A stretch of DNA of 64,000 nt, from assembly GCA_038247415.1 (NCBI GenBank), contig JBBRUX010000019.1:1-64000 (forward strand). Reading direction: 5' to 3'. This DNA comes from Chitinivibrionales bacterium (lineage in GTDB: Bacteria; Fibrobacterota; Chitinivibrionia; Chitinivibrionales; WJKA01). Shown here in pieces: positions 49,766 through 57,595 of this stretch. The notes under the pieces are model-generated. The model saw nothing but the letters and a program-made list of their open reading frames with translations. It searched no databases and was not told where the DNA came from. Position numbers and translations under genes: made by a program. Position 1 is the stretch's first letter. Every line of letters starts with the position of its first letter.

Positions 49766-50316
49766 ATGAGCAATTCACAGAACTTTCATCAATCTTTTTG
49801 GAATGATGTGACTTTTGTTCAGAAGTATCTTAATGACAGCGACACTTATTTTCCCCAACGCAAAACGGTTCTATCCATGATCCAATTCATTTATCAGAAT
49901 CTTTTGAAGAAAACTAATAAAAATCATCATATCGTCGATTTTGGATGTGGCAGCGGAATCATATCGCAGATATTGCTAAGAGTTGATCCTGATATTCAGA
50001 TTACTTTGGTAGACGGCTCATTAAAAATAATGGGATTTTCCTCAATTTTGATCCTGTGCTCTCCACATCCAGAACCATGGAGAAATTTGAACTGCAGCTA
50101 TGGAAAGAATGGATTGCTCAATCCGAGGCTGCATTAAACCGGGTGTCAAAAAAATCGCTCGATTATATCCCGGCACAATATAAAAACCATAAAGATAACG
50201 TCCCGAGTTTGCTCGATACACAACTAAAAATGCTTAAAAACATTGGTTTCCGTGACGTTGCTGTGTTTTATAAATATGGTATGTTTGCTTTGTTTGGCGG
50301 TCAAAAGACAAAATAG
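49766..50316 (+). pseudogene. Class I SAM-dependent methyltransferase, internally deleted/frameshifted
   Basis: VDFGCGSG, LVDGS, then another frame LKNNGIFLNFD...QLKMLKNIGF..YKYGMFALFGG. Confidence 0.7.
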
Positions 50317-50435
50317 GCTTTGAAGGAGAGTTGATATGTTTATCTATAATATGTTATTTAACAATATGGAAGCCAATTGCGGGAACATAGCGGTTGACGA
50401 TAAGTAAGCATCCGGTGAACCCCGTCTTTATAAGG

Positions 50436-50579
50436 CACTGTTGCCTATGGGAGTTATCGCTGATTATTTGAAAATCAGTATCTCACCGGTCGCTCGTCTG
50501 GTTAGACGAGGCAAAAAAAATGTGGATTCTTAAAGATCAATAAGGATAAAAGGATAGTCCGTCCCCCTCAACCCCTCAC
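50436..50579 (+). mobile_element. 3' remnant of a second Y1/HUH element with its right end
   Basis: LLPMGVIADYLKISISPVARLVRRGK aligns with the C-terminus of 51846-52829; followed by ATAGTCCGTCCCC at 50554-50566. Confidence 0.75.
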
Positions 50580-50688
50580 AAAATTGCTTTGTGGTGGTGG
50601 AGAGAAATTACTCTTTGCCACCATTTTTTTATATATTAGAAGATATTTTTGTAGCCCGCGGCTTAATAAAAGGGCTAAAATATCAGGT

Positions 50689-51522
50689 TTAACTTGGGCA
50701 AGATATACTCAAATACTGATCCACCCCTTTTGCACATGCAACGATTTTCTTAAGAAGAGATTCCCGGTAAATTGAATTATTAAAAGTTGCATCTGTACGT
50801 GAATTAATTGGATGTTCAAGATGATACTGTATTCCACTGAAGAAAAGATTCTGCCGCCTGATTCCCGCGTTCAGCAGCCGGACTACAAATTCATTATCCT
50901 CACACCCCCAACCACTCATTTCTTCATTATAGCCATTGATCAAAATCGAATCGGCTCTCCAATAGGCCAGAGTCGATCCCAAAACGCCCTTGAGAGAACT
51001 ATTGGTTGCATACGCACGAAACAAAGGGAGTGTTGAAATCCAAGGTAGTCGAAGAGCATTTCCTTTTTTCCTTTCCTGTAAGTCTCTCATGGACGGAATT
51101 TTGGTAGGATTATTAAGCAGATATTCAGTTGCTTTTTTAGTAAAATATGCGCGCCTCCCGGCACTGAAGAAATTTACCTTTGCAAAATGTAAATGATCCG
51201 AAATAAAATTTTCATGCAGAATTGTATCACCATCAACTTGGATAATATAAGGTTTTGCTGCAACTGCAATAGCTTTATTGAGAATTATTGTTTTTCTGAA
51301 TCCCTGATCTGCATGCCAAACGTGTAAACAAGGAAAAGAGGTGCTCGCTTTCTTGGCAAATGCATCAACTACATTTTTAGTTTCAGGCTCAGATCCATCA
51401 TCTGCAATGATAACTTCTTGAGGTAATTGAGTTTGTCGCAAAATCGAAGATAGACAACATTCCAGAGCGTGCGGCCAATTATAGGTTGTGATAATGAGAG
51501 AACATGCTGTCAAATGTTTCAT
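50689..51522 (-). CDS. Glycosyltransferase family 2 (with GT7 C-terminal-like motif)
   Basis: IITTYN, IADDGS, QVDGD, NGYNE..GWGCED. Confidence 0.9.
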   Translation of the reverse strand: MKHLTACSLIITTYNWPHALECCLSSILRQTQLPQEVIIADDGSEPETKNVVDAFAKKASTSFPCLHVWHADQGFRKTIILNKAIAVAAKPYIIQVDGDTILHENFISDHLHFAKVNFFSAGRRAYFTKKATEYLLNNPTKIPSMRDLQERKKGNALRLPWISTLPLFRAYATNSSLKGVLGSTLAYWRADSILINGYNEEMSGWGCEDNEFVVRLLNAGIRRQNLFFSGIQYHLEHPINSRTDATFNNSIYRESLLKKIVACAKGVDQYLSISCPS

Positions 51523-51730
51523 AGAATTATTTAGTAGAGGCCTGTTATATTGTAAATAATAATTTGGATGAAGGCGATTTTTAAAAAATACTATTATTTG
51601 GGTAGCATATTCAATTGTTGTCTCACAAAGAACTTGAATCGATCAAGGATCGCTAAAAAGAATTTCAAATAAAACGAGAAAATTCCCTGTGTTGACAGAT
51701 GAGTGTGCTTTTAATCCTGCCGTCATTCTC

Positions 51731-51759
51731 GGGTGCTTTCCTCCCGTAGAAAAGCACCC
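51731..51759. repeat. Hairpin GGGTGCTTT-N11-AAAGCACCC next to the element's left end
   Basis: 9-bp perfect stem, preceded by REP-like CCGTCATTC. Confidence 0.5.
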
Positions 51760-51783
51760 CTAATAAAATTGGGGGGCGAATTG

Positions 51784-52838
51784 GGGGACGGACTATTATA
51801 TTTGGTTATTCATTCTCCGCCACACCCAAAGACAGGAGCACGCACATGCCACGAATGGCTCGCCTGGATGCCCCAGGGTCTCTCACCCACGTCATGGCTC
51901 GAGGTATCGACGGCCGAGTCATCTTCAGTGATGACGACGACCGACAGGAGTTCATCCGCCGCTTGAGCGCGAGCCTGTCCATATGTGGATTCAAATGCCT
52001 GGCGTGGTGCCTCATGGACAACCACTATCACTTCATGCTGCGAACAAACGAGAAGCCTCTCAGCGCCCTCATGCGTCGGCTCAACGGTGGCTATGCCCGG
52101 TGGTTCAATCACAAGAACAGCCGTAGAGGCTATCTATTTCAGGACCGCTTCAAGTCTGTCTTGTGTCAAGATCAGGAATACGCCAAACAACTTATCCGAT
52201 ACATCCACCTCAATCCGTTGCGTGACGGGATGGTGCGGTCGGTCGCGCAACTGGGTTCGTGGCAGTGGTGCGGACACGGGTATCTTCTCGGGAATCCCGA
52301 TTCTCTTGGAAAGGGATTCCAGGACCGTTGGGAAGCGCTCCGTCGATTCGGGCAGACACCCAGGAATGCCGTGTCCGCCTACCTATCGTACTTCGCTGAT
52401 GGAGTTGACGCGCAGCATATTGAGAAGTCCGGTGATCTTCCGTCGGAGGGAGAAACCGAGATTGCCGGATCGCACAAGGGGTGGCCAGCCGTCGTGGGTG
52501 ACCCCGAGTTTGCCCGGGAGGCAATGGCGAGCCACCGAACTTCGACTTGGCGGAAGCATCGCCAAACAGATTACCGCGGGACGCTGACAAAGATCGCCCG
52601 GCAGATTTGCGCGGAGTTTTCGGTCTCCGAGGATGACCTTCTTCGGCGTGGATGGAACAACGCCAGAGCGACAGCTCGATCCGCATTCTGCTACCGCGCA
52701 CACTTCGAAGAACTGCTGCCGTTATCCGCCATTGCCGACTTCATGGGCATCACGATGTCACCGGTCCTTCTGCTGGCGCGGAAGGGGAAATCGTCCCTAT
52801 CCAATGCCGTAAACAACCAAATAAAATAGTCCGTCCCC
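51784..52838 (+). mobile_element. Y1/HUH transposase element bounded by 14-bp terminal inverted repeats
   Basis: GGGGACGGACTATT (51784-51797) and AATAGTCCGTCCCC (52825-52838); visibly GC-richer than the flanks. Confidence 0.8.
51846..52829 (+). CDS. RAYT-like Y1 (HUH) transposase with C-terminal DnaA-C-like HTH
   Basis: MPRMAR, HVMARG, MDNHYH (HUH), GYLFQDRFKS, YIHLNP (catalytic Tyr); AGGAG RBS. Confidence 0.9.
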   Translation: MPRMARLDAPGSLTHVMARGIDGRVIFSDDDDRQEFIRRLSASLSICGFKCLAWCLMDNHYHFMLRTNEKPLSALMRRLNGGYARWFNHKNSRRGYLFQDRFKSVLCQDQEYAKQLIRYIHLNPLRDGMVRSVAQLGSWQWCGHGYLLGNPDSLGKGFQDRWEALRRFGQTPRNAVSAYLSYFADGVDAQHIEKSGDLPSEGETEIAGSHKGWPAVVGDPEFAREAMASHRTSTWRKHRQTDYRGTLTKIARQICAEFSVSEDDLLRRGWNNARATARSAFCYRAHFEELLPLSAIADFMGITMSPVLLLARKGKSSLSNAVNNQIK

Positions 52839-52856
52839 AAAAACGTCCCCAAAAAA

Positions 52857-53260
52857 CTTGCTCGAATATAAGATCCAAGCCTTGGCCGGATCGTTCAACC
52901 AATCCAGCTTTCTCGAAAACTTCTGCAAGCCGTTGATTTCTCCACGCACGGCTGAATATAACGTTTTTCGGGGTAATGCCGGGCAGAAAACCGCCGGGAC
53001 TCTCTATCAGAAATCCATCTGGTGAGGCAGTAATAAATATTACCTGTCCGGAAATTGAATAATCACGGTGGGTAACAGCATTTAAAACCGCTTCCCGGAT
53101 GGAGCGTTCATCAAAAGCAAACACTTCTCGCTGAATGAATCCCTGTTGGAATGGAGTGCGGATGTTGCGGCTTTCGAGTTCTCGCCAAATCTCGTTCACA
53201 ATCGTCAAGAATGATTGCCGCCATTCAAAAACAATCTCAGCCTGGGGCAATATAAATAAG
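52857..53260 (-). pseudogene. Internal fragment of an ATP-binding protein (HATPase_c_4 / RecG-C-like, Schlafen-AlbA-associated type)
   Basis: IREAVLNAVTHRDY, IESPGGF, RNQRLAEVF...VERSGQG; truncated at both ends. Confidence 0.75.
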
Positions 53261-56041: not shown

Positions 56042-57595
56042 TTATCGGTTGTTGCGGTACTTTCGCGGGGTCATGCCATAGTGGTTGCGGAACACGCGCG
56101 TAAAGTGATCGGGCGTGCCATAGCCGCACTGCAGGGCGGCCTGACTGATGTTGATGTCAGGATTGCCCAACAGCTCTTTTGCTCGCGCCATCCGCCGTTC
56201 GTTCAAGAGCTGAACAAACGTTTGCCCGACCAACTCACCGAACTTGCGCCCGAAGTAGTCTTTGTTGAGCCCAACACGCCGAGCAACCATCTCGATGCAC
56301 AACTCCTCGTTGTCGAGGTTATCGTCAATGAACTTGATGGCGGCCGCAACCATCGGATCCGTCGAGATCACCGGCGCAAGATCGGGAGCATCCTTGGGGG
56401 ATCGTCGGCGCCTTGGCGCGACCAGAAAGGCGGCGACCACCACACATACTCCTACCAGGGCAGCAATCAAACCGAGGGTAGACCCTTGGACACGCTCGTC
56501 GTCGAGGACAAGCGATCCCCACTCGCTCGGGTTCTCGTGATTGTGGGGCTGCCCGGCCCATCGGGCGAGTGTGCGTGCTCCATCGACACTCTCCCGATCG
56601 ACCATGTAAAGGTCAAACCCTAATGTGTCTCCCGCAGCCACGTCTGGTTTGAGAACCGACCATGGAAGGTGAATTTTTGTGACCGAAACACCGGAGTCGG
56701 CTGATGTGTCGAAGGTTGTCGCCACGTTGATACTGTCTAGGATATTGTAGTGTTTGGCATCGCGTGCATTCAGTCGATACGCATTGACCGACCCCCAACA
56801 CGACACACTGACGATGATGTCGTCCAAAACGATCGCTTCACCCCGGTCTCGGGCGGGGTCGAGGAACACGATGAACCCGTCGTCCAGATAGAGTCTCTGC
56901 ATCGCTTCGTAATCCGTGGTCGTGTCCCAACTCGGTTGGCCTTCAGACGTGAAGCGAGAAAAGAGGCGGTCGTCGCGCGATCGCAGGGCGATGAAGAGTC
57001 CGGTTGCGGTCCAGCATACATGCACAGCGTACCGGTTGTCTCCGTTCACATAGACGATAGTGGGGTCACCGGGCCATTCAGTCTCCCCGAACTTACCGTC
57101 GATTACAGGGTCGCGGCGCACTCGATCTGCGCTCGCTGTAAGCGTGGAGTACTCGATATGACGGTCGAGGGCAGCCCGGACCCACTGCGAACTGCCATGT
57201 TTCCCGGCACTATCCTCCGCGACGCACCAGAACCCAAGTCGGCGCATCGGCTGATCCAAGATTCGCGAGCAATCCCAAATGACCTCATAAGGCGGGGTGG
57301 AATCCCATCCGATGGTATCGGTGGTACCCTCGCGCAGCCGCTGCGGCCCCTGGTAGTTCACAAAGAAACCGACGGTCCTGACCCCGGCTTCGCCGCCCGT
57401 TGCTTCTGCCCGAATCCTGATTGCGTCGCTGCGGAGCATAGAGAACTGGGCAGGCTCGATGAGACGAACGTTGGGGGAAGCGGCGTCTACTAATAGAGCC
57501 CCGATGAGCACCATCGAGGCGATGCTAATTAAATGGCTGCACCGATGGACGATGGACCAGTGAGCAAGGCACGGAACATTTGAGAGCACAGACAC
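56042..57595 (-). CDS. Membrane-spanning regulator: Ig-like + CBM9/DOMON-like sugar-binding domain, TM helix, AraC HTH (start uncertain)
   Basis: PVIDGK..EW, IHLPWSVL, LGFD, NPSEWG; TM followed by RRRR; YFGRKF, RMARAKELL, ISQAALQCGY..HFTRVF..GMTPRKY. Confidence 0.8.
   Translation of the reverse strand: MSVLSNVPCLAHWSIVHRCSHLISIASMVLIGALLVDAASPNVRLIEPAQFSMLRSDAIRIRAEATGGEAGVRTVGFFVNYQGPQRLREGTTDTIGWDSTPPYEVIWDCSRILDQPMRRLGFWCVAEDSAGKHGSSQWVRAALDRHIEYSTLTASADRVRRDPVIDGKFGETEWPGDPTIVYVNGDNRYAVHVCWTATGLFIALRSRDDRLFSRFTSEGQPSWDTTTDYEAMQRLYLDDGFIVFLDPARDRGEAIVLDDIIVSVSCWGSVNAYRLNARDAKHYNILDSINVATTFDTSADSGVSVTKIHLPWSVLKPDVAAGDTLGFDLYMVDRESVDGARTLARWAGQPHNHENPSEWGSLVLDDERVQGSTLGLIAALVGVCVVVAAFLVAPRRRRSPKDAPDLAPVISTDPMVAAAIKFIDDNLDNEELCIEMVARRVGLNKDYFGRKFGELVGQTFVQLLNERRMARAKELLGNPDINISQAALQCGYGTPDHFTRVFRNHYGMTPRKYRNNR

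Follow-up and report, generated by a model that had tools for sequence, protein, structure and literature searches.

The window analysed here is a stretch of 64,000 nucleotides (nt) of DNA from a Chitinivibrionales bacterium (positions 1 to 64,000 of contig JBBRUX010000019.1, assembly GCA_038247415.1), and the subject of this analysis is a compact one-gene unit of 1.06-1.09 kb within it, which runs from 51767/51784 to 52838/52856. The sole open reading frame (ORF) between the two ends of this unit lies at 51846-52829 on the forward strand; it is intact, encodes a protein of 327 amino acids (aa) and matches the Pfam family Y1_Tnp (E 2.9e-11). Inverted repeats enclose the gene, and their outer tip reads GGGGACG. 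The unit is very probably a TIRtron, a mobile element whose one gene encodes a TIRYT transposase and whose boundaries are inverted repeats with this GGGGACG outer tip. An earlier note, made from the letters of this stretch, had described an intact Y1 gene with a DnaA-C-like helix-turn-helix (HTH) tail, perfect 14-bp terminal inverted repeats, a guanine-plus-cytosine (GC) content above that of the flanks and no shared target-site duplication, and each of these descriptions was upheld by the results given below.

The ends of the element were read from the sequence itself. GGGGACGGACTATT stands at 51784-51797, and AATAGTCCGTCCCC, at 52825-52838, is its exact reverse complement; a repeat search extended this perfect 14-nt pair (14 of 14 positions) into 42-nt arms at 51769-51810 and 52812-52853 that are 83% complementary. 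Each end also carries a 12-nt tip unit in tandem: on the left side AATTGGGGGGCG/AATTGGGGGACG at 51767-51790 (92%), with the outer unit at 51767-51778 and the inner one at 51779-51790, and on the right side CGTCCCCAAAAA twice at 52832-52855 (100%), with the units at 52832-52843 and 52844-52855. The left end as a whole, from the outer tip unit through the perfect repeat to the end of the imperfect arm, occupies 51767-51810, and the right end, from the start of the imperfect arm through the perfect repeat and both tip units, occupies 52812-52856. The stop codon of the gene (TAG, 52827-52829) falls within the right repeat. When the 260-nt segments around the start and around the stop of the gene were compared with an ungapped score of +1/-2, the best inverted repeat scored 21, while 300 dinucleotide shuffles gave a mean of 8.2 (standard deviation 1.0) and a maximum of 12, so that none of the 300 reached the observed score.

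It had also been proposed in the earlier note that the element is neither of the IS200/IS605 type nor a RAYT gene flanked by REPs, and this was borne out on both counts. The subterminal imperfect hairpins that mark IS200/IS605 elements, which have no terminal inverted repeats, were absent: single-strand DNA folding of both ends, on both strands, was not better than that of shuffles (z 0.20, 0.67, -0.24 and 0.02). The flanking REP palindromes, dispersed in the genome, that mark classical RAYT genes and REPtrons were likewise not found; a search of the genome with the 24-nt end, allowing up to 7 mismatches, returned the two ends of the element, the tip of a neighbouring remnant (described below) and chance matches only, and no REP family. 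In the whole genome the 14-mer occurs at the two ends of the element only, and its 13-mer form occurs once more, at 50554-50566.

The encoded protein was examined by motif, profile and predicted structure. It contains the motifs NHYH (H60 and H62, the HUH motif, at 52023-52031) and YIHLNP (with the catalytic Y119 at 52200-52202), and H60, H62 and Y119 are invariant in an alignment of 33 sequences. The AlphaFold2 model (mean pLDDT 82.4) consists of two domains joined by a low-confidence linker at residues 208-223. The first domain, at about residues 1-207 (51846-52466), is predicted to be a RAYT-like HUH/Y1 nuclease: residues 3-207 matched the structure of E. coli TnpA_REP with its REP hairpin (4er8_A) with a Z of 15.6 and a root-mean-square deviation (rmsd) of 3.1 (156/165 aligned), and Foldseek gave E 3.2e-6 for the same pair. 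The second predicted domain, at residues 245-323 (52578-52814), is an HTH domain like domain IV of DnaA, with a Z of 11.2 and an rmsd of 2.0 against 1j1v_A (79/94 aligned) and a Z of 11.0 against 3pvp_A. This tail is weak in Pfam, where Bac_DnaA_C gave E 0.0095 and 16.4 bits, below the cut-off of 31.5, and was confirmed by its fold; among the 33 aligned relatives, 16 had Bac_DnaA_C at E<=0.01, the best with 3.6e-7. With the family profile, nothing meaningful was found among the sequences of the PDB (best E 0.54), and a homodimer prediction with two copies, run without controls, scored 0.00 against a mark of 0.42 and gave no answer. As modelled, the protein is a RAYT-like HUH/Y1 single-strand nuclease joined to a DNA-binding domain of the DnaA-domain-IV type.

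Relatives of this protein proved to be numerous. A word-indexed protein search, in which 8,000 candidates were scored, gave 1,946 relatives at E<=0.001, the best non-self match being 66% identical; the named matches came from Chitinispirillaceae or Chitinivibrionales, or were labelled 'RayT' or 'transposase' by their source. An exhaustive search over representative clusters returned 31,197 clusters at E<=0.001, 13,483 at 1e-10 and 607 at 1e-30. Among genome contigs, a relative was encoded in 581 of 609 candidate stretches, from which 79 loci were kept, and together with loci from related genomes 90 loci were examined; 24 of these had an incomplete gene or short flanks and were left out, and the remaining 66 comprised 7 duplicates and 59 unique loci. 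They came from Fibrobacterota, Desulfobacterota-type metagenome-assembled genomes (MAGs), SAR324 and others, with a protein identity of 33-56%. Matches were present in 21 of 41 related genomes (the genome of the window included) and in 6 of 6 genomes of the same family, with as many as 17-18 matches in one genome, of which many were fragments, and the closest protein relative in the 40 other genomes was 56% identical to the protein of the window. A protein search of JGI metagenomes added 13 loci, all 30-45% identical and of no use for defining the ends of the element; in the JGI metagenome contigs, the exact 24-nt end (with one degenerate place) had 0 matches.

The earlier note had named the conservation of the terminal repeats among homologues as a check on its reading, and the repeats were found again around the genes of many relatives. 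An inverted repeat scoring at least 13 was present at 37 of the 66 loci, compared with 0 of 66 when the upstream part was shuffled, and 31 of these 37 repeats contained GGGACG. Within 250 nt upstream of the gene GGGACG, and within 250 nt downstream its complement CGTCCC, occurred together at 37 of the 59 unique loci, where 0.05 would be expected per side from the density of the hexamer in the far flanks. Alignment of 86 tips on the hexamer gave the consensus WWR-GGGACG-GAST. By these comparisons, a large family has conserved both the repeats and the GGGACG at their tip. Tandem tip units, made up of 5-9 outer bases plus GGGACG with a period of 12-16, were seen at about 10 of the 59 loci, besides both ends of the element in the window. 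Direct subrepeats with an exact run of at least 6 at a period of 6-12 (mostly 8) were found at 17 of 59 ends and at 3 of 59 shuffled ones; with a run of at least 7, the numbers were 12 of 59 and 0. Two direct 8-nt subrepeats, such as TTAACTTA TTAACTTA, were seen to make up the inside of the repeat at many loci (among them L052, L056, L062, L067, L074, L075, L078 and L094), and are candidate binding sites of the DnaA-type domain.

One related MAG carried eight copies of such an element (L011-L016, L019 and L030), 86-96% identical over about 1.3 kb and placed in AT-rich flanks. All eight end at GGGACGGACT / AGTCCGTCCC, and no direct repeat indicative of a target-site duplication was seen at any of them. 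At the right end of these copies, two tip motifs stand about 22 nt apart in inverted orientation and could form a local hairpin, and the left end often has two direct copies of the tip motif 32 nt apart. The orientation of the elements relative to replication, estimated crudely from the GC skew of the flanks at 51 unique loci, was positive at 21 and negative at 30 (binomial p 0.26), a null result as regards bias.

The features described above are those of a class that already has a name. RAYT-like tyrosine transposase genes that lie between long terminal inverted repeats have been given the name TIRtrons, and the enzymes that they encode the name TIRYTs (Di Nocera, De Gregorio, Rocco 2013, BMC Genomics 14:522, PMC3733652); in the accessible part of that account, the motif GGGGWSAS is common to some, not all, of the published repeats, and some of the repeats form moderately abundant families. 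A later classification, as far as its accessible text goes, placed 20 of 26 TIRYTs in TnpA_REP subclass 2.1, all of these with a C-terminal domain like Bac_DnaA_C, HTH_23 or HTH_28, and noted that the TIRYT tip motif is unlike the DnaA box (Quentin, Siguier, Chandler, Fichant 2018, BMC Genomics 19:475, PMC6006769). The element of the window resembles TIRtrons of subclass 2.1 (subgroup 2.1.2), as these are described in the portions available, in its RAYT-like HUH/Y1 gene between long terminal inverted repeats instead of REPs, in the G-run motif with which the repeats begin, in a right repeat that overlaps the 3' end of the gene, and in a long protein with a C-terminal Bac_DnaA_C-like HTH and no REP-like sequences nearby. 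It differs from the TIRtrons in those portions in four respects: the tip GGGACG-G, shared with its relatives (7 of the 8 places of GGGGWSAS); a host among the Fibrobacterota (with Chitinivibrionia-type relatives, by their names), a phylum unnamed there; the tandem 12-nt tip units at both of its ends; and relatives that are multi-copy, up to the 17-18 matches per genome given above. Assigned by its features as described in print, the copy in the window is a new member of a named class, with its own tip variant.

Other known systems are more distant. E. coli TnpA_REP/RAYT, which goes with REP and BIME sequences (4ER8), is the best structural match of the nuclease domain, with the HUH motif and the tyrosine conserved; unlike it, the element of the window is without REP palindromes, GTAG-tagged hairpins or a dispersed repeat family, and its protein has the added DnaA-IV-like domain and a score below the NCBIfam equivalog cut-off. 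The IS200/IS605 elements (IS608 and ISDra2 TnpA) share the Y1_Tnp domain and, going by the eight copies of the MAG, the lack of a target-site duplication; they have subterminal hairpins, asymmetric ends and a TnpA of about 130-150 aa, whereas the element of the window has hairpin-free inverted repeats and a two-domain protein of 327 aa. With domain IV of DnaA (1J1V and 3PVP) the likeness is that of the fold of residues 245-323 (rmsd about 2.0 over 79 residues); unlike DnaA, the protein has no AAA+ module, and the tip of the repeat is unlike a DnaA box, a difference noted for TIRYTs in the accessible text of PMC6006769.

The element differs in composition from its surroundings. The GC content of 51784-52838 is 0.570, compared with 0.381 in the 2 kb on the left, 0.446 in the 2 kb on the right and 0.437 in the 3.84-Mb genome, and by this composition the element reads as foreign to the genome and horizontally acquired. 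On its right side it cuts a gene: the fragment at 52857-53250 on the reverse strand matches HATPase_c_4 (E 1.7e-10), aligns with about residues 262-361 of a paralogue of 488 aa on contig C32 (tblastn) and lacks its N-terminal part too. The junctions were compared with assembled contigs of four public runs (X2-X5; uncovered parts of X4 and X5 were not used). Both junctions are bridged as in the window by X2 and X3, both also from the probable source study, and the left junction is also present in contigs of X2, X3 and X4. A 177-nt contig of X5 matches 52857-52966 and then continues leftwards with other letters, which, translated by eye, carry on the HATPase_c_4 frame, and this sets the end of the foreign DNA at 52856/52857. 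X4, a run of another study, has contigs identical to the element and its left flank, and one 151-nt contig that departs from the window after 52843, at the end of the first right CGTCCCCAAAAA unit. Two right junctions of the element are thus seen, 52843/52844 in X4 and 52856/52857 in the window, each at the end of a CGTCCCCAAAAA unit. Judged from these contigs, the copy in the window interrupts a gene that is present uninterrupted in another sample. In a search for an empty site, as proposed in the earlier note, the 40 related genomes had no close orthologue of the cut HATPase_c_4 gene (best 38% identity), and the uninterrupted form was found in the one X5 contig.

A second, diverged TIRtron has left a 137-nt remnant of its 3' end at 50431-50567 on the forward strand, 1.2 kb left of the intact element and oriented alike. 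What survives is the end of the HTH-coding part, some 32 codons (hhalign 97.7%, E 1.7e-12, 44% identity over 32 columns), and the tip ATAGTCCGTCCCC at 50554-50566. This 13-nt tip is identical in the remnant and the intact element, though their proteins are only about 44% identical over the stretch that remains. Contigs of X2-X4 that are 99% alike to the remnant lead into a longer copy and into a right flank unlike that in the window, with a depth above that of their neighbours, so a fuller copy of the remnant's element exists in these communities. The motif TTGCT was seen shortly after the right ends of the intact element (52857-52862) and of the remnant (50592-50597), and likewise behind the remnant-like copy of the other contigs. 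TTGCT was considered as a target motif and set aside, as in the intact element it belongs to the cut gene (X5) and no such motif was found in the MAG with eight copies; its sharing could be a target preference or chance.

How such an element may move can be sketched from these observations. In the mechanism we propose, the HTH docks on the repeat, the Y1 domain cuts and rejoins near the tip, and no target duplication results; taken as a whole, this joint mechanism is put forward tentatively, with chances somewhat short of even. The C-terminal HTH would dock the enzyme on each repeat at its inner part, which is duplex and element-specific and in many relatives consists of the two 8-nt direct subrepeats. 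The Y1 domain would then cut and rejoin one strand at the invariant GGGACG tip or a few bases outside it, when this is single-stranded, and movement would take place without a target-site duplication, as in other HUH/Y1 elements. In one version the inverted tips would be nicked on opposite strands; in another the two repeats of one strand would pair, and the resulting panhandle, comparable to a REPIN that has a gene in its loop, would be cut at the base. The tandem tip units might moreover be footprints of the enzyme's cutting and rejoining, in a two-strand HUH mode in which the DnaA-IV domain would read the 8-nt subrepeats as duplex iterons, but this we regard as unlikely. Under it, the right junctions after 52843 and after 52856, exactly at the ends of units, would place cleavage a few bases outside the G-run, and the inverted tips would mean that nicking takes place on opposite strands at the two ends. 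Such a mode, if true, would be unlike the single-strand peel-and-paste of IS200/IS605 and nearer to the action of Rep proteins on inverted terminal repeats.

Several results weigh against the assignment to an active TIRtron or limit what can be drawn from it. The window tip GGGGACGG fits GGGGWSAS at 7 of 8 places and the full motif is present in 2 of the 37 strong repeats of relatives, which indicates that the clade has its own tip variant. At 22 of the 59 unique loci the tip pair is incomplete, with the hexamer on one side only at 18 and on neither side at 4, and the 8-nt subrepeats are not clear in the window's own repeat (best run 4). The protein scores 67.9 bits with the NCBIfam model REP_Tyr_transpos (NF047646), under the equivalog cut-off of 80. 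The TIRYT gene is single-copy in the 3.84-Mb genome and no gene-less element ends were found elsewhere in it, so activity in this host is putative. The left flank is not the remaining half of the cut HATPase_c_4 gene, hence this is not a clean simple insertion, and for the same reason the lack of a direct repeat flanking the element carries little weight. The junction contigs are short (151-177 nt), have a depth of 2-3 and cannot be phased to one molecule, the single 177-nt contig of X5 being the only uninterrupted HATPase_c_4 form found. Finally, a literature search on TIRYT, TIRtron and related terms turned up the 2013 and 2018 accounts alone, and no biochemistry or other experiment on any TIRYT.

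Other explanations of the same data fare worse than a TIRtron. That one copy and no dispersed ends are found in this genome would suit a domesticated, immobile RAYT-like gene with a host function of its own, whose inverted repeats serve as regulatory or structural sites, and RAYTs are generally single-copy and housekeeping-like, as stated in the accessible part of PMC5581495. Such a gene is improbable here: the GC content of the element is foreign, none of 40 related genomes has an orthologue of it above 56% identity, the gene that it cuts stands whole in another run, an identical copy elsewhere has a different right junction, its relatives are multi-copy with many decayed fragments, and the decayed second copy lies 1.2 kb away. 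The nuclease domain belongs to the superfamily of IS200/IS605- and REP/RAYT-type enzymes, and the inverted tip pair of the related MAG could fold locally; both would fit an ordinary unit of that type, which uses a local hairpin at each end and in which the long-range inverted repeat is incidental. This is very improbable given that the ends fold on either strand no better than shuffles, that the inverted repeat is far above chance and the same tip stands at both ends in 37 of 59 relatives, and that the genome has no REP family and the 327-aa protein a second domain. The earlier note had proposed a separate, poorly described class, and had allowed for a match to an already characterised family with such ends. 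To the proposal of an undescribed class we give next to no credence: the tip GGGACG-G differs from the published GGGGWSAS and Fibrobacterota members are unnamed in the accessible parts of the published accounts, but the RAYT-like Y1 enzyme, the long terminal inverted repeats with a G-run and the Bac_DnaA_C-like tail are together those of the TIRYT/TIRtron published in 2013 and placed in TnpA_REP subclass 2.1 in 2018, as far as the available text of these accounts reaches (PMC3733652, PMC6006769). The family of the element has therefore been described in print; in a biochemical sense, going by the same accounts, it is not characterised.

TIRtrons form a large group: at E<=1e-10 the search with this protein reached 13,483 representative clusters, and 607 passed E<=1e-30. 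No experiment on them was found in the literature, and they raise the mechanistic question of how an HUH/Y1 nuclease that acts on single strands can work together with true inverted repeats and a DnaA-type domain that binds duplex DNA. The copy in the window adds a Fibrobacterota example with hairpin-free ends, the conserved GGGACG tip, tandem tip units and two alternative junctions. It would be a reasonable substrate for a first biochemical test, and is in itself an ordinary member of its class.

Further features were observed around the element. At 51731-51759, about 10 nt outside the left repeat, lies a 12-bp stem with a 5-nt loop (GGGTGCTTTCCT / AGAAAAGCACCC), with no T-run after it, and the GC content is already rising in the stretch that holds it. 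A scan of 51500-53000 for promoters and terminators gave sites no commoner than in shuffles, and none bearing on the element. The interval between the right end of the remnant and the left end of the intact element (50568-51783) contains a glycosyltransferase family 2 gene at 50689-51522 on the reverse strand, with a low GC content (about 0.38); a composite transposon made up of remnant, glycosyltransferase gene and intact element was considered and set aside, as the remnant has no left end. Further to the left, at 49766-50316 in the same low-GC stretch, there is what looks like a single broken gene, made up of short ORFs of 123 and 86 aa in different frames, and the 123-aa ORF, the first of the two, has a VDFGCGSG-type motif, which we take to resemble that of an S-adenosylmethionine (SAM) methyltransferase. 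On the other side, a 517-aa ORF at 56042-57595 on the reverse strand lies in a second GC-rich patch (0.53-0.63, compared with about 0.44 around it); its C-terminus is AraC-like by eye, and it is possibly another foreign gene.

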